Shown: positions 7,938-63,385 of the stretch, piece after piece
Layout: each line of letters opens with the position of its first letter
Numbering within the stretch: position 1 is the stretch's first letter
Source: Magnetococcales bacterium
Lineage (GTDB): Bacteria > Pseudomonadota > Magnetococcia > Magnetococcales > UBA8363
Reading direction: 5' to 3'
Length of the DNA: 64,000 bases
Assembly: GCA_015228925.1 (NCBI GenBank)
Contig: JADGCQ010000008.1
Coordinates: 2,249 to 66,248 of the forward strand
Notes under the pieces: generated by a model
What the model saw: the letters and a program-made list of their open reading frames with translations, nothing else
What the model was told of the DNA's origin: nothing
The model's database searches: none
Position numbers and translations under genes: made by a program

Positions 7938-10178
7938 TCAGACCCGTTGCGATTTCGGCGGCTGACAAGAACCGTTCCAATGACTCGGTGGCGGATTCTG
8001 CCGAAATTCCGCAATTCTCGCCAAATAAATTTCATATAAACGGTCCTCAGGATCCTTCTGCAACAGATTTTTCAACCCCTGTTCCGCAAGATCCCATTCC
8101 CTTTTTCGGAACCAAGCAATCGCCTTGTGAAAAGACTCCAAACGAGAACGCATCTCAGGGGTGACCTGATTCCGAAACCCAACGGGGGCATAAATAGAAA
8201 AAACCTCATCGGAATCCTCCCAAACAACCCTGTCCAATTCACGAAAAACCATCTGTGGAACCAGTGCTTTTGTTTTTTCCCCCACCAAAACAGGTGCCGA
8301 ATAATAACCCGCCCAATCGATCAAATATCTCACCTGATGGCTTGGTTCCCCAAAAATCATCAGATCATTGCGAAATTCCGATTTGATAACGCCATACGTC
8401 ACCGTCCCCGACTGAATGGCAAAATCACACCGAACCAACGGCCAACCTCGCATCTGAAGTTCATCCTCAAGCGTTTCCAAACGGACCTTCATCGCCATAA
8501 GGGCCGACATGGCGTTGCTTCCATGCTTCGGATCCGCCACCGGTCCACCCCAATAAGCGATCAATAATTCGCCATCGCCATATTCAAAATTGCCAAGATA
8601 TTGATAAATAACTTCCGTTAACGGTTTAAGAAAACATTGTACCCACTGAACCAATTCCGTCGCATCCAATTCTTTCGATACCCTTGAAAAATCCCGGATC
8701 ATACACATCACGACGGTTACTTCCGTGAGTCCCCCGTGTGTCACCAAAGAAGCACCAGAACGGATGGTTTTATCGATCAGTTCGATGGGGGTCTTCGTGC
8801 CAAAAATGGCCACGATTTTGTTACGTTTGCGTGAAATGCCAAACACATCGATAACCCAGTCAGCCACAAATAACAGCCACAAAAGCGTCAAGGAAGGGGC
8901 TAATGGAATGTAAAGATCCCACTGTTTCCATAAATAAATCGTGGTCATCAGCATTACAAATGTAAACAGGCACGCGGCAAGCAACCGCCAGGGCCAAGCG
9001 ACCCAAGGAAAAACAAAGATCACCATCAACCCTATGGCTGCCAGCAAAAGCGACTCAGGCCATGGAGAGCTTTCTGGTAAATTCTTAAAAGTGCCATCCA
9101 ACATGCCGCTGATGATATTGGCGTGAAACTCAACACTTGGGAATCCCGATTGCACAGGAACCGTCAACAGCGGTCTCATTCCCGCGCCAACAGAGGAACC
9201 AATGAGGACAATCGCTGCATCCAAATCTTTTTTTTCGGGACCATGCTCAAGAATATCGATGACCGAATAATAGGGAAAACTCCCCTTTGCTCCCCTGTAG
9301 GGGACAAGAATGGATCCTTTGGCATCAACCCTGATTTTATGCGGCCCCAGTGAAATCCACTCCAGATCAGTCTCCTTGCCTTGGTTCTGTTCACGGGAAC
9401 GGACCCCCAGTGTTAAAGGAGGGTCTCCAAGGATGGCGCGGATGATCCCAAGAGAAAGGGATTGGTACAAAGAACCCGCATAGACCTGGAGGAGGGGGGT
9501 GTGACGGACGACACCATCGGGATCCATCGTCGGTGTGTCGAGAAAGCCGGCACCAGAGGTTGCATCTTGGATTTCGGCAATATTGGACACATAACCAAAT
9601 GCATTGACAGAATTAATTTCATTATATCCCAACTCGCTTAGAGTTATGACGGCCTGGGGCAATTTTCCCACATCGGTCGCACCAGACAATGCCGTCTGTC
9701 TGAAATTAAATCCCAAGACGACAGGACGATCACGCAGACTTTGGGAAAAAATTCGGTCCGTGTCCAAGGATGGGCGAAGTTTAAGAAATTGGGTCAAAAA
9801 CGCAGAATCCTGACTGAGTGGACCTTTGGCCAAGGATTCCAGCGAGGACAAACCCGATCCAGAATCGGTACCTGGAAAAACCAAGTCAAATCCCAATACC
9901 CCAATGCGATAATGGTCAAAAAGGGTATCCACCAGAGAAGCCAAGCGATCCCGCGACCATGGCCATGGTCCCAGTCGCGTCAAACTCTTTTCGTCGATAT
10001 CGACAATGATGATACGGGGATCCTTGGAACCGGAAGCGGTATGGAGAACCTTGAAATCGTAGGCAATCGACTCAAGCCGGTCCAACACAGGCAGGCGAAA
10101 AATTCCAAAACCCTGGATCAGGAAAAGGATCGTGATTCCGATCAATAAAAGATATCGGCCAACCTGCCAGTGGGTCAC
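7938..10178 (-). CDS. CHASE2 sensor with TM helices, degenerate class III adenylate/guanylate cyclase domain and C-terminal TPR-like tail
   Basis: IIIVDIDEKSL...GPWPWSRD, DPDGVVR and VEFHANII CHASE2 motifs; cyclase fold recognisable but catalytic residues substituted. Confidence 0.85.
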   Translation of the reverse strand: MTHWQVGRYLLLIGITILFLIQGFGIFRLPVLDRLESIAYDFKVLHTASGSKDPRIIIVDIDEKSLTRLGPWPWSRDRLASLVDTLFDHYRIGVLGFDLVFPGTDSGSGLSSLESLAKGPLSQDSAFLTQFLKLRPSLDTDRIFSQSLRDRPVVLGFNFRQTALSGATDVGKLPQAVITLSELGYNEINSVNAFGYVSNIAEIQDATSGAGFLDTPTMDPDGVVRHTPLLQVYAGSLYQSLSLGIIRAILGDPPLTLGVRSREQNQGKETDLEWISLGPHKIRVDAKGSILVPYRGAKGSFPYYSVIDILEHGPEKKDLDAAIVLIGSSVGAGMRPLLTVPVQSGFPSVEFHANIISGMLDGTFKNLPESSPWPESLLLAAIGLMVIFVFPWVAWPWRLLAACLFTFVMLMTTIYLWKQWDLYIPLAPSLTLLWLLFVADWVIDVFGISRKRNKIVAIFGTKTPIELIDKTIRSGASLVTHGGLTEVTVVMCMIRDFSRVSKELDATELVQWVQCFLKPLTEVIYQYLGNFEYGDGELLIAYWGGPVADPKHGSNAMSALMAMKVRLETLEDELQMRGWPLVRCDFAIQSGTVTYGVIKSEFRNDLMIFGEPSHQVRYLIDWAGYYSAPVLVGEKTKALVPQMVFRELDRVVWEDSDEVFSIYAPVGFRNQVTPEMRSRLESFHKAIAWFRKREWDLAEQGLKNLLQKDPEDRLYEIYLARIAEFRQNPPPSHWNGSCQPPKSQRV

Positions 10179-10278
10179 TCAATTCCCCCTTACCCTAAAT
10201 TCCCGCTGGTACTCATGAAGCGTGACACACATATTTTTGACTCGGGACTGCAATTTTAAAAGGACTATGGTGGGCGAT

Positions 10279-11946
10279 TCAGGGGTCATATCCTGGAATT
10301 TTTTCTGGGATGACATCATCGATCTGTTTGGGGTTCAAATAGGTTTGCGCATATTCCAGATAGACTTTCTCCTTGATGAACACTTTAAAAAGGTCTGGGT
10401 CGATGTGCTGGTCTTTTTTCATGAATCCTAATATTTTCAATGATTCAGAAAGGGTTTTAGCAGGTTTATAGGGCCTGTCGGCTGCCGTCAAGGCCTCAAA
10501 GATATCGGCGATGGCCATGATTTTAGCACCGACAGACATCTGATCCCCTGTGAGACCATCGGGATAACCTCTGCCATTGATGGCTTCATGGTGCGATCCC
10601 GCCATTTCTGGGACACGACGTAAATGTTTGGGAAATGGGAGGGTTCGTAGCATATTTTGGGTCGCAACGACATGGTGATTAATGATCGTTCGTTCTTCCG
10701 GGGTCAAGGTTCCTTTGGCAATGTTCAGATTTTTTATTTCGTCCTCGGTCAGAAAATTCACCTTGGTACCGGTGCCATCGGTCCATTGGGTCTTGCCAAT
10801 TTCCAGAACCCTGTTTTGCCGCTCGGCAGACATAAATTCACCCCCGACATTGACCTCCCGAACGAACGCTTGATCGGATTTGATTTTGGCGATGGACTGG
10901 TTGAAATCTTCTTCCATCGCGGCGATGGCCGCATGATCCCCTTGTTCCATGGCCTCCATTTTTCGGCGTAGGAAGGCGATTTCGGCATCCCGTTTCAAAA
11001 CCTCAAAACGGGTATCGACGGTATGAATTCGGTCATGGATTGTTTCAAGTTTTGTTGCTTTGTCTACCACATATTCCGGGGTCACCACTTTGCCGCAATC
11101 GTGCATCCACGCCGCAATGCGCAGTTCGTAGATATCCTCTTCCGTGGGGTGGTAATCCTTTAACACGCCATCCTCACAACGCCTAGCGGCCTTGGCCAGT
11201 AACTCGGATAACACGGGTACCCGTTCGCAGTGCCCCCCGGTGTACTCTGACTTGTCGTCGATGGCGTTGGCGATGGCTTCGATGAACGATTCAAACAGCT
11301 TTTTCAAATCTTCGATCAAACGCTGATTGGTCATGGAAATAGCCGCTTGAGAAGCCAAGGATTCGGCCAGTTGCTGATCAGCCTTTGAAAAAGCGATAAT
11401 ATTTCCCGTGTGCGCATCTTTGGCGTTGATTAACTGCAACACACCGATAATTTCATTTTCATGATTTTTCAGGGGGACTGTCAAAAAGGATTTAGAACGG
11501 TAACCGGTCATCTGGTCAAACTTTTTAGTTCCCGAAAAATCATAGCCTTCCGCTTCGTAGGCGTCGGGTATATTAATGGTGGTATCGCGAAGAGCTGCCG
11601 CCGCTGCGATCATTTGCAGGTTGGGTTGGCCATTTTTATAAAGGGGGAGGGCAGGGTAGGGGATATCAACCCCCGTGGTCCCCCCCATGGCGATGTTGAG
11701 TGAATCGGTACGGATAATCTCAAACTTCAGCGTCTCTTCCACAGTTTTCGTATACATGGTGCCGGCATCGGCATTGGTTAAATCCTTGGCTCCCAGGAGA
11801 ATGTTTTCCAGCAACCTTTTGGTGTCCCTTTCGGAAGAAAGGGCAATGCCCAATTGATTGAGTTTATCAACCCGCGCTAGCAAATTGGACACATCCTGTA
11901 TTTCGGACGTTTTTCCAACTTGGTCGTCAATCGTTTTGGACCCCAT
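10279..11946 (-). CDS. GAF plus HD-GYP domain phosphodiesterase
   Basis: GAF SFLTVPLKNHENEIIGVLQLIN; YTGGHCERV, HDCGK, HHEAINGRGYP, IADIFEALT. Confidence 0.92.
   Translation of the reverse strand: MGSKTIDDQVGKTSEIQDVSNLLARVDKLNQLGIALSSERDTKRLLENILLGAKDLTNADAGTMYTKTVEETLKFEIIRTDSLNIAMGGTTGVDIPYPALPLYKNGQPNLQMIAAAAALRDTTINIPDAYEAEGYDFSGTKKFDQMTGYRSKSFLTVPLKNHENEIIGVLQLINAKDAHTGNIIAFSKADQQLAESLASQAAISMTNQRLIEDLKKLFESFIEAIANAIDDKSEYTGGHCERVPVLSELLAKAARRCEDGVLKDYHPTEEDIYELRIAAWMHDCGKVVTPEYVVDKATKLETIHDRIHTVDTRFEVLKRDAEIAFLRRKMEAMEQGDHAAIAAMEEDFNQSIAKIKSDQAFVREVNVGGEFMSAERQNRVLEIGKTQWTDGTGTKVNFLTEDEIKNLNIAKGTLTPEERTIINHHVVATQNMLRTLPFPKHLRRVPEMAGSHHEAINGRGYPDGLTGDQMSVGAKIMAIADIFEALTAADRPYKPAKTLSESLKILGFMKKDQHIDPDLFKVFIKEKVYLEYAQTYLNPKQIDDVIPEKIPGYDP
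11644..11661 (+). other. three overlapping KOPS motifs (GGGNAGGG) oriented toward dif
   Basis: GGGGAGGGCAGGGTAGGG; also coding sequence on the minus strand (Y-P-A-L-P region). Confidence 0.45.
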
Positions 11947-12151
11947 ACATTTCCCTTCACTTGAGAGACTTGAGCCGATGCTCGCAGCATTTTGCCGGAT
12001 TATACATTATTTGACAATGAGACAAACTTGTTTTGTTGCGCCTCCATTTTTTTTGCCAACCATATCCATTCCTCCGCACCCCATCGTGGTTATTTTCAAT
12101 AATTATGCCAACAATTGGCGCGGCTATCTTTAGGATGGTTTGGTCGTAAGA

Positions 12152-12179
12152 ATTTAACATAACGTCGATGTTGCGCACA
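12152..12179 (-). other. second dif-like XerCD site, inverted relative to the main dif
   Basis: Minus strand TGTGCGCAACA-TCGACG-TTATGTTAAAT: perfect XerD arm, 6-bp centre, XerC arm 8/11 to E. coli GGTGCGCATAA. Confidence 0.75.
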
Positions 12180-12209
12180 GGTTTTCTGGCTTTTATTAAT
12201 AATATAAAC

Positions 12210-12237
12210 AAGTCGCATAAGATGTATTATGTTAAAT
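12210..12237 (+). other. dif site (XerCD chromosome dimer resolution)
   Basis: AAGTCGCATAA-GATGTA-TTATGTTAAAT: XerD arm identical to E. coli dif, CGCATAA core in the XerC arm, 6-bp centre, intergenic AT-rich context. Confidence 0.9.
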
Positions 12238-12381
12238 TGCCACCAGGATCAAAGTATAGACTTGTAGGTTACATTAATTTGTCGCTGTGGCCAATCAGAA
12301 ACATCATTGTATATGATCACTATCATCATAAATTAGAATTATGGTCAAAATTGGCTCACTTTACGGAAGATGAAATTAATG

Positions 12382-12559
12382 AAAACCTTATGAACCTGTA
12401 TGTGTTTCTATTCATAACGAGAAACATCGCGGTCATGTAGATATTTCTCGTTTTCCATCGCGCCAATCAGATTGAGAAACACTTAGATCTCGTAATCATT
12501 TCCATTAGCGCATGTGCGGTTGAAAAAACGTGGAAACTGCCACGTCATGCCCGTCTTTC
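12382..12559. repeat. cluster 1 of 27-bp dyad boxes GAAAC-N17-RTTTC
   Basis: Boxes at 12382-12408, 12421-12447, 12476-12502 and 12533-12559, each with a 17-nt spacer. Confidence 0.7.
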
Positions 12560-12905
12560 CAAATAGACCCCATGGCCCCACACCGCACGCCCCACCGTCT
12601 ATCTTCGGTTCGTCGGCGCGGTTCAAAACAATCTGTGCATGGGGCGATCATATATATTCATAATGATTATATGGTACATCATTTAATGTGTGTTTGTCAT
12701 GCGCCGTGGCGTACTAGAATCCATGAAAACAACATGGCCCTCTCACCCGTGTTGGAAGAATGTTCCCGTTGCAGACCTTAGACAAACCGTGACAATCCGA
12801 ATCATTCATACCCCATTGCGCTTCCTGTTTTTAGCATATCTTGCCGTCATCGTGTGATGGGATTAAGATCCAAACCTTCCATGTCGCGGGTTACCTGTGT
12901 TAAAG

Positions 12906-13027
12906 GAATGTTTTACAGCGACAGATGGTTTCTTGATCGATAGAAGAAATACTACAGTGGCCTAAGTGTTTCTCATAGGCAAGATCATTAACGAAATTTA
13001 GAAACATCCCCTGTCCGTAACCGTTTC
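12906..13027. repeat. cluster 2 of 27-bp dyad boxes GAAAC-N17-GTTTC
   Basis: Boxes at 12906-12932 (left half degenerate), 12946-12972 and 13001-13027, each with a 17-nt spacer. Confidence 0.7.
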
Positions 13028-13051
13028 CATTAATTGAAAGTGCCTTCAATC

Positions 13052-15058
13052 ATGCGTCCCATTCTGGTTACCAGTGCCCTCCCCTACGCCAACGGTTCCA
13101 TCCATTTAGGCCATTTGGTGGAATACATTCAGACCGACATTTGGGTCCGTTTCCATAAAATTCGTGGCCGAGATTGTCTTTATTTTTGTGCCGACGATAC
13201 CCATGGAACGCCCATCATGATTCGCGCTCGCAATGAAGGGATCACCCCGGAAGCGTTGGTTGCGCGCATCCATGGGGAACATGTCGCCGACTTTCACGAT
13301 TTCTTGATTGGCTTTGACCATTATCATTCTACCAACTCCGAAGAAAACAAAATCCTCAGCGAAGAGGTTTATATCGCCAATCGTGAGGCTGGTCACATTC
13401 ACACAGCATCCGTGATGCAAGCCTATTGTGCCAAGGACGGTCTCTTTTTACCGGACCGCTTTATTCGTGGTGTTTGCCCATCCTGTGGTGCTTTGGACCA
13501 ATACGGTGATGCCTGTGAAGTCTGTTCGGCAACCTATTCCCCTCTGGAATTAAAGGAAGCACGGTGTGCTTTGTGTGGCACCTCTCCCGAAGAGCGGGCA
13601 TCAGAGCATTATTTTTTTAAATTGGGTGATTTTGAACCGTTCCTGAGGGAGTGGACCCGATCGGGCGCGTTGCAGGTGCAGATGGCCAACAAATTGTCGG
13701 AATGGTTTGAAGAAGGGTTGAAAGCCTGGGACATCTCCAGAGATGGACCCTACTTTGGTTTTGAAATTCCCGGCGCACCGGGAAAATACTTCTACGTCTG
13801 GCTAGACGCCCCAGTTGGCTATATGGCATCGTCATGGAGCTATTTTAAACAACATGGGATTGATTTCGACCGATACTGGCGTGACCCTGATCAAGTCGAA
13901 ATCTACCATTTCATCGGCAAAGATATCCTTTATTTTCATACCCTGTTCTGGCCTGCCATGCTCAAGGGGGCGGGTTTCAGAACACCGACCGGGGTTTTTG
14001 CGCATGGCTTCTTGACCGTCAATGGTCAAAAAATGTCCAAATCCCGGGGGACTTTCATCACGGCCAGAAGCTATCTCGAACAGCTTGATCCCGAATATTT
14101 GCGGTATTATTACGCCGCCAAGTTGACCAAGGGGGTGGATGACATCGATCTTAACCTGGACGATTTCGTGCAACGGGTCAATGCGGACATGGTGGGCAAG
14201 GTGGTCAATTTGGCTTCGCGGACGGCTGGTTTTATCCACAAGCATTTTCAAGGTCAACTTTCTGCGACCTATCCCGACGATCAAGGATTGTTCCAATCAT
14301 TCTTAACGGAAGCCGATACCATTGCCTCCTACTATCAGGAACGTGACTTCTCAAAAGCCATGCGGGCCATCATGGCCTTGGCGGACAGAGCCAACCGTTT
14401 CGTCGAAGAAAAAGCCCCTTGGACCTTGGCCAAGGAGAAACGGATGGTAGAATTACAGGATACGTGTTCGGTGGCGTTGAACCTTTTTCGGCTGCTGGTG
14501 ATGCAATTGCATCCGGTCTTGCCGGCGATGGCGGAAAAAACAAGGGTATTTCTTAATCTGCAAGATATCAATTGGTCTACAACAATTGTCCCATTGGCTG
14601 GGGTGACGATTGCCCCCTTCAGTCCGTTGATGGTGCGCGTGGACAGTCAGAAAGTACAAGCGATGGTGCAAGCTTCGTTGGCGACGGTTACGCCGGTGGT
14701 GGATGGGGTGAAAAAGGAAGAAAAAGGAGAAACAATCACCATGGAGACGTTCATGGGGGTTGATTTGCGCGTGGCGCGGATTACACAGGCTGAGGAGGTC
14801 GCGGGGGCGGATAAATTATTGCGGTTGCTCTTGGACGTGGGAGAATTGGGGTCACGGACTGTCTTGGCGGGGATACGGGGATCTTATACACCGGGGGATT
14901 TGTTGGGGCGTATGGTGGTGCTGGTGGCCAATTTGGAGGCGAGAAAGATGAAGTTCGGAGTCTCTGAGGGGATGGTGTTGGCTGCGGGGGACGGAAAAGG
15001 TCGATTATCGCTGATTGGCCCAGATGAAGGGGCGTCACCGGGAATGCGGGTCAAATAG
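13052..15058 (+). CDS. metG: methionine--tRNA ligase with C-terminal tRNA-binding domain
   Basis: [11 protein letters not shown] (HIGH-type), KMSKS, Cys zinc knuckles, C-terminal OB fold [10 protein letters not shown]; start placed at MRPILV. Confidence 0.97.
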
Positions 15059-15095
15059 GGCGATCAAGTCGAAGTTTCTTTTATTTGCCTTCCTA

Positions 15096-15116
15096 TGTAT
15101 ATTGTGAGAATATACA
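15096..15116. promoter_or_regulatory. inverted-repeat operator of the brnTA module
   Basis: TGTATATT-GTGAG-AATATACA immediately upstream of the toxin ATG at 15121. Confidence 0.6.
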
Positions 15117-15120
15117 GGTC

Positions 15121-15441
15121 ATGGTTGACTTTGAAAAAATTACCGGCTTTGATTGGGACCAGTGCAACCAGCGCAAAAACGCAGATAAACACGGTGTCAG
15201 TCAGCCGGAGGCGGAACAGGTGTTTTTTAACGATCCGTTGCTACTGGTCGAGGATGTTGGCCATAGCCAGTCAGAAAAGCGCATTCATGCTCTCGGAAAA
15301 ACCAACACAGACCGAATGCTGCATGTGGTCTTCACTTTGCGGAATGATGAAACATTGATTCGGGTAATTTCAGCAAGAGACATGCATCGCAAGGAGCGAC
15401 TACGCTATGACCAGGAAGCATCAGCCAATCCCCATTTTTAA
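15121..15441 (+). CDS. brnT: BrnT family ribonuclease toxin (type II TA)
   Basis: FDWD..N..KNADKHGVS..EAEQVFF and IRVISAR motifs. Confidence 0.9.
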   Translation: MVDFEKITGFDWDQCNQRKNADKHGVSQPEAEQVFFNDPLLLVEDVGHSQSEKRIHALGKTNTDRMLHVVFTLRNDETLIRVISARDMHRKERLRYDQEASANPHF

Positions 15442-15679
15442 GACGGAAGCAGAGGAACGGGCCTTTTGGGAATCCAACGATTCGTCCAGCTATGTAGACT
15501 GGACCCAAGCGGAACGGGTCCGCCTGCCCAACCTAAAGCCATCCACCAAAGCCATCTCCCTACGTCTGCCTGTTTCTCTACTGGAACAGATAAAAGTGAC
15601 CGCCAATAAACAGGACGTCCCTTATCAGTCATTGATTAAGATTTGGTTGGCGGAAAGAGTGGGTGTTGCAAGCCATTGA
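15407..15679 (+). CDS. brnA: BrnA/CopG-family ribbon-helix-helix antitoxin
   Basis: IPIFKTEAEERAFW, ISLRLP, VPYQSLIKIWL; overlaps the toxin 3' end. Confidence 0.88.
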   Translation: MTRKHQPIPIFKTEAEERAFWESNDSSSYVDWTQAERVRLPNLKPSTKAISLRLPVSLLEQIKVTANKQDVPYQSLIKIWLAERVGVASH

Positions 15680-56265: not shown

Positions 56266-59200
56266 TCAGTGATCTTTGTCCAATGCACTGGGAAAATTCA
56301 ACTCATCGGGCATATTTTCAAGGTACGGTGGTGGTTCAATACCAAGACGTTTAAGAAGATCATCCAACAACATCCAATCCCCTTCCGGGGTTACCAGATC
56401 TCCCCGAATATAGGCCCGCAGACACCATTGCAATCGTCCTTCCCGTTTTTCGGGATGGCGGGCCAAATCTTCCAATAACACCCGATCTTCCGGGGTGCTT
56501 CTGCGGGCGATGTGCCGCGCCAGGGCAGACCACAGGGGTTCCGGGCGCTGTAATTTTTTATAATAGGCCATTGCTTGTTGAAATGCCCTGTCATCTCCTC
56601 CCTGATGAAACGAAAGCCGACAGGCATGATGGAATAATTCTATTTCTGGTCCAAAAGGTTCTTTATTAATAGAATCATGTTCTAGCTGCCCATGGGCCAA
56701 CAGAGCGCGGGTGCCTGCACGACCTGGAGACAACACTTCCGTCGTCAACAAATCCAAATGGGAATTCCGCTTTGGGTCCATTTTGATGTCATGCGCCAAG
56801 TCATGCGCCCAGTCGCGCACCCAGTCGCGCGCCAAGTCGCGCGCCAAGTCGCGCGCCCAGTCGCGCGCCAAGTAGTGCGCCAAGTACCGCGCCAAGTCGC
56901 GCGCCAAGTACCGCGCCAAGTCGTGCGCCAAGTCGTGCGCCCAGTCGTGCGCCAAGTCGTGCGCCAAGTACCGCGCCAAGTCGTGCGCCAAGTACCGCGT
57001 CAAGTCGCGCGCCCAATCACGCTCCAAGTCACGCGCCAAGTCACGCGATTTCCTGCTTTCAGCCCCTGGAAATAACCAGCAAAAGGAAGTTTGCCCAAGT
57101 GACAAGGCCAACTCAAAACCAAGAACAAAGAGAAGGTTTTGACCAGAAAACCCCCACTGACGGCGTCTTCCAGGCCAAGTTTGTATGAGAAGACTTTCAC
57201 TCCAACCTGGCCAGATGGAAACACCGCCATTGAGGAGTCGTCCCACGGCAAGCCCCTTGTCCCCCTCTGGGGCATCATTCATGGCGTGCAGGAACAGCGT
57301 GAAGCCAGGGCGAGCATGATCACGCATTGGTTGTAAACCGATCATTTCCAACCCTGTATTCAACCGCTGACAAGCCATCCAATTGGCATTGTTAGCTCCC
57401 TCACTCTGCCATTGGCGCTGAATGATGGCTTTACTCTCCTCTTTCCTACTGACTTTCCAAGCGTCCAACCCTTGATCGGTACCACGTTTCCAATCTTTCG
57501 CCAGCGCAATACCACTCCTCTTAGACCACTCTTTGACATGTTTCAATAAATCATCAGCAAGAAAAGTTCCTGCCAACCATAATCCATATTCTTCATCTTC
57601 GCATAGATGAGAAAATACTGGTTCTAACCGTTCCGGGTTGATATCAGCGACTAGGGCGGCCCAAAGACGTAATGTTTCCCACCAAAAGCCAAGGTGTCTC
57701 CATTGAGCAACCAATACAATCCGCCCTTGATCACCTTCTATGGTAGCTTGCAGATGCCAAGCGGTGAGAAATTCTTGAAAACTCAGATGGGCAAAAGAAA
57801 GTTTATAGTCAGTGCGATCCACCAACACCCCGGCGGGACCAGAAAGCCAGGATAAGAAACCATCCTTATGGGCTGAATCCCAGTCGGACGGTAAATATTT
57901 GGCCATCTCCTCCCAGGATTGCACCAAACTTTTTCTTCCGGTTTTTTCATCATACCCTGTTTCCTGCATCCCATGGGCCAGTGCTGCGACAACACGAAAG
58001 CGTTCGGCCCCAGAATCGGGACGCCAACGATGCCGTTCTCCCCGCACCCCCTCCTGTTCCCTACGGTCGGGCAGTGCTGACAGGAGATTATCCAAAGTGA
58101 CCTGATAAAGCTTGTGCCGACGGTCCGGGAGAGGGCTGGTGCGGCTGACCAGGAGCATCATGGTCAGCAACAAAGCGGTACGGGCCAAATCATGAGCTTC
58201 GGGGGTATGAAACAATCGGTCTATAAATTCTTCGGTCGCTTTTTTCCCGGCCACCTGATCGCTACCATGAATGTGCTGAAAAAAATTCCCGGAGAGTTTC
58301 CTGATTTCTCTATCATCCAGAGGCTGAACATCCCACACCGTAAAACCCTCATTGTAGGTGGGACTATCGCCATACGGACGACTACTGAGAACCACCTTCA
58401 TGCCACTGTTCTTTTTCATGAAAACCAACAATTTTTGACGGAAATCTTGGCCCAACTCCCCCAGTTCATCCCACCCATCCACCAATAAAACTGGAGTAAC
58501 TGTTTTCGTTCTGGCAAACTGAAGGAAAAAGGCCTCTTGCCATTCTTTCAGCCCATATTCCGCCAACCACGATCCCAAAAATGATTCCAGATTATGGAAT
58601 TTTTCTTCGACATTCTGCCAATACCGCGCCAAAGCTCGCAGTTCCACGAAAAACGGAAACGTATCCTCACGTGTTAATAATTGCCGAAAGGTCCACCGCA
58701 TCCAGGTGGTCTTGCCCGACCCCGCCACACCGCGCACAACCAGGGGTTTACTCAGAGATAGCACCTCTTCAGGTTCCAGTGTCTTTCCCTCTTCAAGCTT
58801 ATCTGGATCATATCCCTTACCCAAGCGCAAAGAAACATACATGTTTTCCAGCGTGGCATCCACCACCTTGTCCTTTGCTGGTCCCGACGCAGCTGCCCCC
58901 ACATGGCGCAAATCCCATCGGTCAAAGAGAAAAGCCAGTTTTTCCCGATATGCCCGCAAGAAAGGGGCACTCATGACACTTTCTGGCTGCGGTGCAGCAA
59001 ATGGCCAGTTCTCATAACCTCGAAAAAAAATCCAGGCGTCATCAGCCGATTGAGCTACTTGATCAGGTTTTAAATTGAACAATGCACACACAACACTGAC
59101 CAGCGCATTACCCGCTTTTTCCCAGTTTTCTTTCCTGAAATCGGCAAAAGCAGGCTTACTTTCCAACTTGGTTTTGTCGTCCATCCTAAAAGCATGGGGA

Positions 59201-59559
59201 AAACAATGATCTGGATCATGGATATGTTCAAGCCAATCGGAATTTCCTGCAAAAACACAGGCAATGATCTGTTTATTACCGCGAATCTTCTTAAAATTTT
59301 GAATTTCAAGTTCCACATAAGGGGATTTGGCAGATTCGGGGGTACAGAGGAGGATTAAGAACTCGGATTGTTCTAATGCAGCGACTATCTTTCCATCCAA
59401 ATCGGCCCCTGCGGCAATCTTGGCGGTATCGAAAAAAATAGTTTCATCGTTCAGTTCATTTTTAAAGCGTTCGATGGAAAACAATCGTTTACGCAACCAT
59501 TGGGCTTGGTCGGTATTCTCCCGACTGTAGCTGATAAACGCCTTATATGGAAACCCCAT
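56266..59559 (-). CDS. TIR-NACHT (STAND NTPase) protein with a C-terminal tetrapeptide repeat; putative defence NLR
   Basis: AFISYS TIR box with Glu in SPYVELEI; Walker A GVAGSGKTT; Walker B LLVDGWDE; SSRP; FAHLSFQEFLTA winged-helix motif. Confidence 0.9.
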   Translation of the reverse strand: MGFPYKAFISYSRENTDQAQWLRKRLFSIERFKNELNDETIFFDTAKIAAGADLDGKIVAALEQSEFLILLCTPESAKSPYVELEIQNFKKIRGNKQIIACVFAGNSDWLEHIHDPDHCFPHAFRMDDKTKLESKPAFADFRKENWEKAGNALVSVVCALFNLKPDQVAQSADDAWIFFRGYENWPFAAPQPESVMSAPFLRAYREKLAFLFDRWDLRHVGAAASGPAKDKVVDATLENMYVSLRLGKGYDPDKLEEGKTLEPEEVLSLSKPLVVRGVAGSGKTTWMRWTFRQLLTREDTFPFFVELRALARYWQNVEEKFHNLESFLGSWLAEYGLKEWQEAFFLQFARTKTVTPVLLVDGWDELGELGQDFRQKLLVFMKKNSGMKVVLSSRPYGDSPTYNEGFTVWDVQPLDDREIRKLSGNFFQHIHGSDQVAGKKATEEFIDRLFHTPEAHDLARTALLLTMMLLVSRTSPLPDRRHKLYQVTLDNLLSALPDRREQEGVRGERHRWRPDSGAERFRVVAALAHGMQETGYDEKTGRKSLVQSWEEMAKYLPSDWDSAHKDGFLSWLSGPAGVLVDRTDYKLSFAHLSFQEFLTAWHLQATIEGDQGRIVLVAQWRHLGFWWETLRLWAALVADINPERLEPVFSHLCEDEEYGLWLAGTFLADDLLKHVKEWSKRSGIALAKDWKRGTDQGLDAWKVSRKEESKAIIQRQWQSEGANNANWMACQRLNTGLEMIGLQPMRDHARPGFTLFLHAMNDAPEGDKGLAVGRLLNGGVSIWPGWSESLLIQTWPGRRRQWGFSGQNLLFVLGFELALSLGQTSFCWLFPGAESRKSRDLARDLERDWARDLTRYLAHDLARYLAHDLAHDWAHDLAHDLARYLARDLARYLAHYLARDWARDLARDLARDWVRDWAHDLAHDIKMDPKRNSHLDLLTTEVLSPGRAGTRALLAHGQLEHDSINKEPFGPEIELFHHACRLSFHQGGDDRAFQQAMAYYKKLQRPEPLWSALARHIARRSTPEDRVLLEDLARHPEKREGRLQWCLRAYIRGDLVTPEGDWMLLDDLLKRLGIEPPPYLENMPDELNFPSALDKDH
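56782..57045 (-). repeat. in-frame 12-bp tandem repeat, 22 units, encoding (R/H)(D/Y)(L/W)A
   Basis: Consensus minus-strand unit CGCGACTTGGCG; protein RDLA RDLE RDWA RDLT RYLA HDLA ... HDIK. Confidence 0.95.
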
Positions 59560-59569
59560 GACTCCCCCA

Positions 59570-62500
59570 TCATTTAACCAAAGGTTTGGCTTGCAACGCC
59601 ATCATAATCGTTTCATAACCTGTGGTCAACTCTGAGGGAACTTCCAGGGGTTTCCAACGCCCTTCCATCCTTTGAAGGGCTTGCCGGTTCAGCGTAAAAT
59701 AATCGCCTAAATATTGTCCCTGCTGAAAATGTTGTCTGGCTTGCGATAATTTTCCATGGCGTTGATTGGCCAAGCCCAGAAGAAGATGGATCACCGCCAT
59801 ATCCCGATGGGCATCACGGGGGGCCTGTTTTTCCACCTCGGAAAAGTCGGTCTCAATATGGTTGGGATCCAATAACATTTTGCGAATCACCCGATGGCCC
59901 GGACCAAAATTGGCATCATCCGGGTTATACGCCCGCTCGATACTCTCCCGCTTGATCACCTCCGGCGTCCCCAACAACAACGCCGAATAAATCCCAAACT
60001 TTTCCAACCAACGGGGATTCATCACCGAAGGTTCCAAAAATTCCTCAATCGCCAACGAAGATGCCGTCCATTTGAATAGGGTCTCAAATTGTCCCGCCTC
60101 CCAAAAACTGATCTGAAACATCAAGTGCAACATCGTCTGGTCCGGCATCTCCCGCAAACCATCCAGCACAACCCGCATATGGTCGAATAACGCTTGACTA
60201 TCCCCCCCATTTTCCCACTTGCTGTGAAACACATTGGCACTCGCGGTGACATGATTCAACCGCGATAATTTTTGAAATTCCTCTTTTCCCGATTGTTCCG
60301 CCAAGTGTGATTCCCACGCCGATTTTTCATTCACCTGCTCCAACGCCTCCGCCACCAACCCCATCCCCTGCAACGCCTGCGAATAATTGTCAATCAATAC
60401 CGTATCCCACGGGCGCAACCGAACCGCCTCCTTCAACAACAACGCCCCCGTCTCTCCCAAGCCATTGTCCTTCATCACCTTCGCCCGCTGCACCATCTCA
60501 TCCACGCTCAACGTCCCCAAGTCGGGATGAACCCCCGTGATGTCGGGCAATTTTACATCCTTCAAACCATCGATAAAAATCACCCCCTGAGGCGTCCCCA
60601 AGGCCAAGGTATCCTCACCCTCATCATAGGCCTGACTCAAGATCGGGGTCGTCAAAGGTAACGTGCGATAATTGGCATGGGAATCTTCCAAACCGTGAAT
60701 CGTCAACGATCCCCCCGCATCCCCAGCCAGCAACAAAACCCCCGCCTCGGAATCCTTCCACGCCATCAACGTCGTCGCCGATGAAACCCCATTCTCAATG
60801 ACTTTTTCCACCTTCCAGGTGTTGGTGTTCAACAGCGCAATCTGACCGCTCGCCAACGCCAAAGCGACCCGATTCCCCCCCGGAATCGAGGTCATGTCCA
60901 GGACAATCCCCCCCGGCAACGCCGTCTCGCTGATGATTTTGCGGGTGTTTAAATCAAACTGAATCACCTTCCCTTCCGCCGCTCCTTGCCAGCGAACATT
61001 AACGGCAATCAGAATGCGCCCCGGTGTCGGCAACACAATAAAATTATTAATCTCTCCGGTCACCAGCCACTGGGCATTGTCATGATTTTCCGCCAACAGA
61101 AAATAAGGGGTCAAACCGTTCTCCCCCAGCCGATAAATGCCGCTCCCCTTTTGGCCAAATCGCTGGGATACCACCACAAAATCGGGGGAAACAAAGCCAA
61201 TGAAATGGATGGAATCCCCCAAGGATTGCGCCGTCAATACTTGGTTTTTCTCCGGGTGTCCCGGGACAACCCGTTTCACCTGCCCATCCGCCGTCCCCAC
61301 CAAAAACTGACCATCCGGCAGCACCGCCGCTACCGTCGCCCCCTCCGAACCCGCAACCATTTCCGGCAAACTCGCCTCATCGGCAAACCGTTGCAAGATC
61401 CCATACCCCTTGGCCAAACATTGATGGTCCGCCAATAAGGAAGGGCCAACCATGGCAAAGGTTTGAATCATCCGCGCCTGATTCACCGTGATGCGCTCGG
61501 TCGGACCCTGCAACGCCCCACACACCATGGCATACCATGCGTCCCCCTCCTTCCCCTTCCACAACTGCCGCACCGGCAATACCGTGGGGATAAAATGCCG
61601 ATCTTCCACCGGCAAGATCTCATACACCGCCCCCTGGACAATCAAACCAAACAGATGCCCCTCATCCGAATAAGCCACCTGACTGAACCGCTCCGGGGCT
61701 TCATAAACCATGGTTTCCCGCCCACTGGCCAGTTCCCACTCCACCAAACCCGGTTTACGGTTGGTATCGGGCGGCCAAACCACTGCCACCGCCAAACGGT
61801 TGTCATCGGGAGAAAAAGCCAGGTCAAAAAGCCCCCCTTCCAATTTTTTATCCCATAAATACCGCCCATCCGCGACCCCCACCATCCCCACATGACCATC
61901 ATGGGTGTACCAAGCGACCCAATCCCCCCCATGGGACATCCTGAACTCCGCCGGACGATCATGAATCGGTTGTTGCCAAACCATCCGATCCCCCGGCAAA
62001 TCCCACCGGGTCACCATCCCTGGCCCATAGGCCCAAAAAATAGAATTTCCATCATTTGTTATCGCAACTGAGGCCGACCCCTGTTTTCCGGCTGGGGTTT
62101 TATTCCCCCGCCACACCACCGTCAACGCCCCACCCTGGGCCACATCGTACACCATGATCGAACCATCCTCACACCCCAGCACCAGCCGGTCCCGATCCCG
62201 CGCCTTGGCCATCCAAGAACAAGATTGCCCATGATCCGCCAACACGGTAAACCGCATTTCACCCAACGCAAAGCGGAGCAAACGACCCCGTTTCTGTCCA
62301 AGAATGAATACCGTTTCGCCATCGGTCGCCATCGCCGAAGTCAAGCTCAACCCCGCATCATGATCGGCTTGGCGAATGGACCCATTCCCCTCATAAACCA
62401 CCACCTTGTCTTCCGCCACCACCACCAGACGACCATCACCCAAGACGTGCAACCCTTTGCCGATCAAGGGCCGTTTCAGGTTATAAACCTGCTCGGACGG

Positions 62501-63385
62501 CAAGTGTCCCAGGGTGTCCCACAACCCCGTCCGCGTCAGCCAGTCGGGGTGAATGCCATAGGCATCAAACCCTTTTTTCACCCCGTTGCGAATGCGTCCT
62601 TGGGAAACCTCCAGATGCGCCGTTTGCGTCCATGACTCTGCTAGGTTTTTGTGTGCCTGTTCCAAATTATGGACCGCCTGCCCCTTTTGATACCACGCAA
62701 AGAGACCCAAACCCGTCATGATCACCGCAATCATGACCGACAGCGTGATAGCCGCCTGCATGATTTGGCGGCTACGGCGTTGCTGAAATAGAATCAATCG
62801 CTCCGGGGCCACCCGCAACAAGCTACTCGCCACCCGTGCCAGTTCCGTCCCCCACGCTGTCCCTTGGTTCCAACGAAAGTCGGCCCAGGCCGGTTCATCC
62901 TCCAATTGATTGATCGTCTCCCCCTGGAAATCGATCCGATAACGCAACGCCCGTGGCAGACATTGATCGGGTGCGGGGATCGTTTCCAATGTCTCCCCGC
63001 TGCCCGAAGTGAGCAGAGGTGTCCCTTTGAAAAGACAAAAAATAATGTTTTCCGCCCCACGATGCTGTTTAAAATAACGGATTTCCTGATCGACCCACTC
63101 CGACCGGGCAGCATGGGGGGTGCAGATGACAATCAAAAATTCCGATTGGCGCAGACTTTCTTTAATTTTTTCTGACAAACTTGGGATGGTGCCGATGGCC
63201 GCTTCGTCAATAAACAGCCTGTCATCGGTAATCTGCTCCTTGAACAAAGTCGCCAACTGTATGTCATCCTTGGGCATTTTCATACGCGAAAGAAAATAAC
63301 GAAACCATTGGGCACGCCGTTTATCTTTACGACTGTAGGAAATGAACGCTTTATAGGGAAAAGCGGATAGAGCCATGACGACCAA
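59570..63385 (-). CDS. TIR domain, single TM helix, WD40-like beta-propeller region and TPR-like helical C-terminus
   Basis: AFISYS TIR with SEWVDQEI; TM AAITLSVMIAVIMTGLGLFAWY; blades such as LAFSPDDNRLAV, LVLGCEDGSIMVYD, LLAGDAGGSLTIH; TPR-like VIHLLLGLANQRHGKLSQARQHFQQG. Confidence 0.85.
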   Translation of the reverse strand: MVVMALSAFPYKAFISYSRKDKRRAQWFRYFLSRMKMPKDDIQLATLFKEQITDDRLFIDEAAIGTIPSLSEKIKESLRQSEFLIVICTPHAARSEWVDQEIRYFKQHRGAENIIFCLFKGTPLLTSGSGETLETIPAPDQCLPRALRYRIDFQGETINQLEDEPAWADFRWNQGTAWGTELARVASSLLRVAPERLILFQQRRSRQIMQAAITLSVMIAVIMTGLGLFAWYQKGQAVHNLEQAHKNLAESWTQTAHLEVSQGRIRNGVKKGFDAYGIHPDWLTRTGLWDTLGHLPSEQVYNLKRPLIGKGLHVLGDGRLVVVAEDKVVVYEGNGSIRQADHDAGLSLTSAMATDGETVFILGQKRGRLLRFALGEMRFTVLADHGQSCSWMAKARDRDRLVLGCEDGSIMVYDVAQGGALTVVWRGNKTPAGKQGSASVAITNDGNSIFWAYGPGMVTRWDLPGDRMVWQQPIHDRPAEFRMSHGGDWVAWYTHDGHVGMVGVADGRYLWDKKLEGGLFDLAFSPDDNRLAVAVVWPPDTNRKPGLVEWELASGRETMVYEAPERFSQVAYSDEGHLFGLIVQGAVYEILPVEDRHFIPTVLPVRQLWKGKEGDAWYAMVCGALQGPTERITVNQARMIQTFAMVGPSLLADHQCLAKGYGILQRFADEASLPEMVAGSEGATVAAVLPDGQFLVGTADGQVKRVVPGHPEKNQVLTAQSLGDSIHFIGFVSPDFVVVSQRFGQKGSGIYRLGENGLTPYFLLAENHDNAQWLVTGEINNFIVLPTPGRILIAVNVRWQGAAEGKVIQFDLNTRKIISETALPGGIVLDMTSIPGGNRVALALASGQIALLNTNTWKVEKVIENGVSSATTLMAWKDSEAGVLLLAGDAGGSLTIHGLEDSHANYRTLPLTTPILSQAYDEGEDTLALGTPQGVIFIDGLKDVKLPDITGVHPDLGTLSVDEMVQRAKVMKDNGLGETGALLLKEAVRLRPWDTVLIDNYSQALQGMGLVAEALEQVNEKSAWESHLAEQSGKEEFQKLSRLNHVTASANVFHSKWENGGDSQALFDHMRVVLDGLREMPDQTMLHLMFQISFWEAGQFETLFKWTASSLAIEEFLEPSVMNPRWLEKFGIYSALLLGTPEVIKRESIERAYNPDDANFGPGHRVIRKMLLDPNHIETDFSEVEKQAPRDAHRDMAVIHLLLGLANQRHGKLSQARQHFQQGQYLGDYFTLNRQALQRMEGRWKPLEVPSELTTGYETIMMALQAKPLVK

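Follow-up and report, generated by a model that had tools for sequence, protein, structure and literature searches.

The matS site of the MatP system is a 13-bp palindrome dispersed over the terminus domain, across hundreds of kb. The accessory DNA of the cer and psi Xer sites is ~180 bp long and abuts the XerC arm. ZapT of Caulobacter gives 10 ChIP peaks over ~0.9 Mb, mostly within ORFs, and no motif is given for them (PMC7188993). Proteobacterial dif sites are described as having no specific genetic environment (PMC2731167). Inverted attP1/attP2 pairs mark CTX-type elements that use Xer (PMC3442271). Here we describe seven symmetric boxes that lie beside a dif site in a 64-kb stretch of DNA, the whole of which is called the window below.

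The intergenic region and its genes

The boxes lie in a 1.1-kb intergenic region between metG and a divergent GAF/HD-GYP gene; its G+C content is 42% vs 51.7% for the window. metG, which codes for methionine-tRNA ligase, is on the + strand (13052..15058, ATG at 13052; NCBIfam NF001100, 887.9 bits). The divergent gene is of the GAF/HD-GYP signaling type and is on the - strand (10279..11946; Pfam HD_5 and GAF, and NCBIfam). The gene of a CHASE2 sensor protein and that of the GAF/HD-GYP protein together cover 7938-11946 and are transcribed away from dif. The two products may be a signaling pair; the CHASE2 protein has 360 C-terminal residues without any Pfam match.

The brnT-brnA toxin-antitoxin pair is located directly 3' of metG (15085..15679, + strand; PF04365, 3.3e-25, and PF12441, 7.1e-34). 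It has a palindrome of its own, 21 bp long with perfect 8-5-8 symmetry (15096-15116), just before the likely brnT start (ATG 15121). Elsewhere in the window, a dense period-12 GCGC repeat (~56790-57000) is found within the gene of a TIR-NACHT protein (ORF 56266-59559), and the neighboring gene, 59570-63385, encodes a TIR/beta-propeller protein. These look like a pair of defense-type genes.

Architecture of the boxes

Each box is a 27-mer, and the outer pentamers are separated by exactly 17 nt in seven of seven. Direct checking of the sequence gave the same coordinates and spacers as an earlier, sequence-only reading of this DNA. Box 1 (AAAAC-N17-GTTTC, 12382..12408) has a leave-one-out position weight matrix (PWM) score of 13.0, and 0 non-box positions in 64 kb score as high. 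Box 2 (GAAAC-N17-ATTTC, 12421..12447) scores 22.7, rank 0, with flanks that add to the dyad and give arms of 13 nt (inverted repeat I10). Box 3 (GAAAC-N17-ATTTC, 12476..12502) scores 26.0, rank 0. It overlaps a promoter-like sequence, TTGAGA-16-AATCAT (12472-12499), the only sigma-70-like match on the + strand of the arrays, and over 14 nt its left arm is complementary, without a mismatch, to the right arm of box 6 (I3). Box 4 (GAAAC-N17-CTTTC, 12533..12559) scores 10.5, with one non-box position as high; its interior is rich in G and C, and nothing in the second cluster corresponds to it. Box 5 (GAATG-N17-GTTTC, 12906..12932) is the weakest at 6.4, with seven non-box positions as high. It is the sole doubtful member and was accepted mainly from its position, which is homologous to that of box 1. 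Box 6 (GAAAT-N17-GTTTC, 12946..12972) scores 18.2 and box 7 (GAAAC-N17-GTTTC, 13001..13027), the sole exact dyad, scores 16.7, both at rank 0. The metG ATG follows 24 nt past the end of box 7, the distance read originally.

The boxes form two clusters. Offsets between boxes are +39 and +55 in cluster 1, with a further +57 to box 4, and +40 and +55 in cluster 2; the clusters are 524-525 bp apart. These values agree with the earlier ones, but cluster 1 holds four boxes where three per cluster had been counted. The clusters had also been called phased, at ~50 helical turns from each other, which is arithmetic only: neighboring boxes are 3.7, 5.2 and 5.4 turns apart and therefore not on one face. 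An exact 10-nt direct repeat, GCCAATCAGA, occurs at 12290-12299 and 12462-12471, with a GAAAC within 0-6 nt after each copy. The GAAAC at 12298 could represent one arm, the left, of an eighth box that has decayed; the partner arm reads CTATC.

Aligned outward from the center, the 14 half-sites give the consensus GTAAGTGTTTCY. The counts out of 14 are G8, T8, A7 and A8 for the inner part, then R10, T8, G9, T13, T14, T14, C13 and Y14. The site is 29 bp long when the pyrimidine after TTTC, found in 14/14, is included. The central base is C in five boxes, G in one and T in one. An inner TTAC/GTAA half-site, proposed previously, is present, though weak at 7-8 of 14 per position.

Within each box the two arms follow the shared consensus, not one another, and at the weaker inner positions a change in one arm is not matched by a compensating change in the other. 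This uncompensated variation points to a protein site rather than an RNA hairpin. The general proposal of a binding platform for a dimeric protein is supported as a prediction, by the convergence of the arms on one half-site and by the lack of compensation. Both the half-site matrix and the leave-one-out scores describe repeated, dyad-symmetric boxes with one shared consensus, as expected of an operator array.

Significance of the motif

The word GAAAC-N17-NTTTC has four matches in 64 kb, and 4/4 are in this region. With the looser set of pentamers used in the sequence-only reading there are 10 matches in the window, seven of them here. Seven of the eight TTTC words in the region are the right arm of some box. 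When spacers from 0 to 44 were scanned, the sole peak was at spacer 17, and five of the eight GAAA-N19-TTTC matches in the window fell within these 813 nt. The window total of eight compares with 2.70 +/- 1.47 expected and was reached in 1/100 shuffles.

In 20,000 dinucleotide shuffles of 12240-13052, the same spacing gave 0 matches in 19,451, one in 542 and two in 7, against five observed. The maximum over all spacers from 0 to 40 in the same shuffles was three, reached once. None of the 20,000 shuffles matched the region. In the leave-one-out PWM ranking, five of seven boxes are above all non-box positions in 64 kb, the exceptions being those at 12533 and 12906. The PWM scan found no further full sites in the remaining 63 kb of the window. 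Half-sites of at least 9 bits number 69 in the window, with 10 within these 650 bp. The motif is non-random and real.

In a more conservative test, every 4-mer at every spacer in the 64 kb was compared with per-kb Markov simulations. A cluster of five appeared in 6/60 runs, and the test ranked the present cluster first after the coding tandem repeat at 56.8 kb.

A diverged direct repeat

The 141 nt from 12370 share 49.6% of their positions with the DNA 525 nt downstream, more than at any other of the 62,719 offsets compared (runner-up 42.6%, mean 24.8 +/- 3.9%). Sliding identity places copy 1, with boxes 1-3, at ~12360-12510 (12360..12510, + strand), where it is above background. Copy 2, with boxes 5-7, is at 12885..13035 on the + strand and is supported by the offset comparison and by direct repeats D5 and D12 at spacing 525. 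The similarity at this offset stops near 12510, before box 4.

Outside the boxes, identity between the copies is 40% over 90 positions vs 25 +/- 5%, a level reached by 2/2,800 control offsets, and this may be partly an extended flank of the motif. The inner spacers are 35% identical, which 182/2,800 controls reached. The box arms are 80% identical vs 35-40% elsewhere, a figure that is not independent evidence because the boxes were chosen for those arms. On these comparisons the clusters are a paralogous, diverged direct repeat of ~150 bp. The DNA between the boxes had been described as not similar, with geometry rather than sequence conserved. The identity outside the boxes contradicts the first statement and paralogy the second: the equal offsets (39/55 and 40/55) are inherited and therefore not independent evidence of selection on geometry.

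Paralogy also invites the account that the boxes have no function: an old duplication at this place would be in decay, and its matching parts were picked out. The motif set was indeed defined after looking at the sequence, clusters of five do arise in the conservative simulations, and box 5 is not individually significant. A 525-bp duplication cannot, however, account for the likeness among boxes 1-4 within one cluster. A tandem-repeat origin was rejected as well: TRF finds only a 9-nt, 2-copy match inside box 1 and no matching period. The shuffles never exceeded two matches at the spacing or three at any spacing, five boxes top the leave-one-out ranking, and other genomes contain no match of at least 17 bits in 701,888 nt (see below). 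Absence of function is thus highly improbable.

Search for a binding protein and for relatives

Domain scans were made on sets of 13, 34, 30, 12 and 7 ORFs, which comprise all large ORFs and 44/69 gap ORFs. Among the ORFs scanned, no resolvase, recombinase, transposase or phage domain was found, and no regulator gene adjoins the arrays. The only DNA-binding protein found in them is BrnA, a ribbon-helix-helix antitoxin encoded 2 kb off. BrnA is an unlikely candidate for the binder, judging by the different palindrome before its own operon.

The DNA between the clusters was searched for other content. An RNA element was rejected: Rfam gave 0 matches over 11000-14000 at E up to 1, and the 403 nt between the clusters (12503-12905) have no RNA fold signal (z -1.43 and -0.39); no tRNA was found. 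A hidden gene or pseudogene between the clusters was rejected, as 12 ORFs gave no Pfam match better than E = 0.1; tblastn with the window's own proteins, a test for hidden pseudogenes, gave nothing below E = 0.039. A phage or plasmid origin was rejected on blastn of 11947-13052 against 50,697 phage and 72,556 plasmid records, with 0 matches. The known consensuses for IHF, CtrA, DnaA, two LexA types, sigma-54, CRP and FNR have no match in 11947-13052, and no sigma-70-like promoter with at least 8/12 matches is present in the 190 nt before metG.

Relatives were sought through MetG, which led to 80 loci from other bacteria with 701,888 nt scanned. On this DNA the box matrix gives three matches of at least 12 bits (best 15.8) and 0 of at least 17 bits; the seven boxes themselves score 17.3-30.1 on the same matrix, but they are its training set. 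The motif cluster is absent upstream of metG in all 80, including the closest available relative, a Magnetococcales MAG with a MetG 68% identical (locus L009), where metG is preceded by only ~60-70 nt and a different neighbor gene. A conserved control of metG is rejected on this ground, and the motif is therefore lineage-specific. The XerD-type arm is likewise absent from the 80 metG loci. In titles and the beginnings of abstracts, the literature has nothing relevant on the GAAAC-N17-GTTTC motif or on operators with GAAAC and GTTTC, and the literature search likewise found no paper on a metG promoter.

The dif site and the terminus

The dif call was borne out. The site (site B, + strand) is a 28-mer at 12210..12237 with a XerC-type arm, a 6-nt center and a XerD-type arm (12227-12237), and the polarity of GGGNAGGG, the FtsK-orienting word of E. 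coli, flips there. Over the part of the window counted (3055-63948), GGGNAGGG occurs seven times on the + strand and 0 times on the - strand left of dif, and twice on + and 15 times on - right of it. The switch falls in a 1.4-kb gap between 11654 and 13077. It seems from these counts that the E. coli-type FtsK-orienting word holds in this distant lineage. Cumulative GC skew peaks near dif but tracks gene strand. These sequence features place the true terminus in the dif area.

A second, inverted dif-like site (site A, - strand) is located at 12152..12179. It matches site B in 11/11 positions of the XerD arm and 5/11 of the XerC arm, and it has the poorer XerC-type arm and a GC-rich center. Sites A and B are head to head, with 30 nt between their XerC-type arms, and their XerD-type arms form a 12-nt perfect inverted repeat (I7). 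The DNA hairpin fold of the pair is weak (z -1.89). In its arrangement the pair is similar to attP1/attP2 of CTX-type elements, or else to a XerD-only site. On either side of the pair is one copy of a 19-nt direct repeat (12101-12119 and 12337-12355; 79% identity, 236 nt from copy to copy), perhaps by chance. The naming of the XerC and XerD arms follows PMC2731167.

All seven boxes are to the right of dif, 144-817 nt away on its XerD-arm side. Such proximity raises a minor possibility, that of a terminus-specific platform in which a dedicated protein would occupy the seven sites beside dif. Its task might be to keep dif at the septum, like a 'centromere' of the terminus, to arrest the final forks, or to influence XerCD/FtsK. 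The arrays do lie within the 1.4-kb gap where GGGNAGGG polarity flips, at 144-790 nt from dif. The motif occurs nowhere else in 64 kb, the ORFs scanned include no local regulator gene, and metG has no clear promoter. ZapT of Caulobacter, a terminus protein, is without a defined motif (PMC7188993).

Against a platform, the sites are one-sided and two-fold symmetric, hence no polar trap of the Tus or RTP type. Known organisers disperse their sites over hundreds of kb, as matS does, or ~0.9 Mb for ZapT. The boxes are on the XerD side, opposite to the accessory side of cer/psi, and a chromosomal dif needs no accessory sites. The specific form of a compact 'terminus centromere' by a double dif, exactly where the chromosome converges, is quite unlikely; there, a dedicated dimeric protein would link dif with the division machinery or retain the final replication forks in a lineage without MatP, Tus or RTP. 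If a terminus role is true, the arrays would be, MatP, Tus and RTP apart, the first protein platform at dif that is both compact and defined by its sequence, and they would offer a direct handle on the last steps of chromosome segregation in such bacteria.

The inverted dif-like site, in the arrangement of CTX-type attP1/attP2 pairs (PMC3442271), brings up another account: the boxes could be the relic of a mobile or recombination element. They would then be res-like sites, the ends or operators of a decayed dif-integrated element, or orphan toxin-antitoxin operators. Three uneven dyads of 26-28 bp across ~121 bp resemble res in size, and the two copies are in direct repeat with 375 nt of no recognizable content between them. 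A brnTA module is nearby, and the two-turn separation of the half-sites is reminiscent of toxin-antitoxin operator complexes such as FitAB/VapBC.

The searches speak against such an origin: the ORFs scanned contain no recombinase, transposase or phage domain, domain scans found no phage genes beside the dif pair, and none of the 50,697 phage or 72,556 plasmid records is similar. Furthermore, all the subsites have the same size, unlike those of Tn3-type res, and the spacing pattern is direct, not mirrored as in transposon ends. The window has no third dif-like site with at least 17/22 matches. Both arms are strongly retained in 12/14 half-sites, which argues that the sites are still in use. A relic is therefore unlikely.

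Proposed operator-like sites in a divergent promoter region

Quite possibly, the seven boxes are operator-like sites of one putative dimeric protein in a divergent promoter region, with a role in local transcription control. Operators near metG appear to be the most economical reading of the sequence. Box 7 is near the metG ATG, box 3 is on the promoter-like match and the region is divergent, and local transcription control is therefore most likely among the roles considered. The motif is non-random and spacing-specific, the 14 half-sites fall on one consensus, and the DNA between the clusters has no RNA or ORF signal; these observations favor operators.

The following model can be drawn. The boxes would be bound by one sequence-specific protein, either a dimer with two-fold symmetry or a pair of dimers, and each half of it would contact the outer RGAAAC and, more weakly, the inner TTAC. 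The outer contacts would be 22 bp apart, or two helical turns. The layout would be two diverged copies of a ~150-bp three-site module plus one extra site, with 24 nt between the proximal module and the metG start and with the distal module over the sole sigma-70-like match of the arrays. The protein could control metG, a leader upstream of it or some unannotated transcript, or metG together with one of these. Within a module it would bind cooperatively, and a loop may connect the modules. The adjacency to dif would be incidental, because the arrays and dif share one long AT-rich intergenic region. That the sites are real and symmetric, occur only here within the window and fall into paralogous clusters is shown by the sequence; that a protein binds them, controls transcription and forms a loop is what we infer.

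Some observations run against operators. Among the ORFs scanned no regulator gene adjoins the arrays, no metG promoter is recognizable, and no regulon is visible in 64 kb. The arrays are exactly at the convergence point of GGGNAGGG, which on the operator reading has to be called coincidence. Seven operators for an essential housekeeping synthetase gene would be unusual and have no known precedent. The finding is real and well defined. Should the boxes be ordinary operators, a lineage that has been little studied gains a new regulator motif, and the boxes would be a rare case of multi-site control before an aminoacyl-tRNA synthetase gene. With so short and clearly delimited a probe, the question is testable whether operators or a terminus role is assumed.

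Comparison with known systems

The locus is unlike CRISPR, REP and MITE repeats in that only the box arms are alike, TRF finds no array and there is no further copy in 64 kb. Compared with a CTX-type element, the dif pair has the inverted XerCD sites; no phage gene or similarity was found.

MatP/matS, Tus/Ter, RTP/Ter and ZapT share with the arrays a location at the replication terminus, here next to dif. A reading along the lines of MatP, Tus or RTP is not supported, however. The matS consensus has 0 matches in 64 kb, and the boxes, instead of being dispersed, are packed into 650 bp, all of them to one side of dif. Unlike the polar Tus/Ter and RTP/Ter sites, which face each other from either side of the terminus, they are dyad-symmetric, all right of dif and none elsewhere in the window.

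The accessory sequences of cer and psi are comparable in that the boxes, too, would bind protein beside a XerCD core. The Xer-accessory reading is not supported by their position, since the boxes are at least 144 nt off on the XerD-arm side; they extend over 144-817 nt there, and a chromosomal dif with FtsK-orienting polarity around it takes the place of cer or psi.

Operators of the FitAB/VapBC type have elements ~22 bp apart center to center and come several in a row, and brnTA is 2 kb away from the arrays. In contrast, the arrays are not before a toxin-antitoxin operon, and brnTA has the different 21-bp palindrome.

The res sites of Tn3 and gamma-delta are closer in layout, with three uneven dyads of 25-34 bp in ~120 bp. 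The centers here are 39/55 and 40/55 apart, the triples cover 121-122 bp, and two copies are in direct repeat. The res reading of the earlier account is nevertheless not supported, as a res site has its resolvase gene next to it, no resolvase domain is present in the ORFs scanned and all subsites are 27 bp. Tn3-type res subsites differ in inner spacing, whereas the geometry here is identical at 27 bp and a fourth site is present in cluster 1; an active resolvase, of which the ORFs scanned contain no gene, would delete the 525 bp.

Finally, the arrays can be set beside the operators of lambda OL/OR, deo and gal. Those sites are 14-20 bp vs 27-29 bp here, where contacts are two turns apart; here, too, the ORFs scanned include no nearby repressor gene, and the target would be a housekeeping synthetase. 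The likeness is in the arrangement: several dyad sites of one protein fall into two groups separated by a few hundred bp, and one group is at a gene start. Two groups so placed make cooperative binding and looping plausible for the boxes as well.
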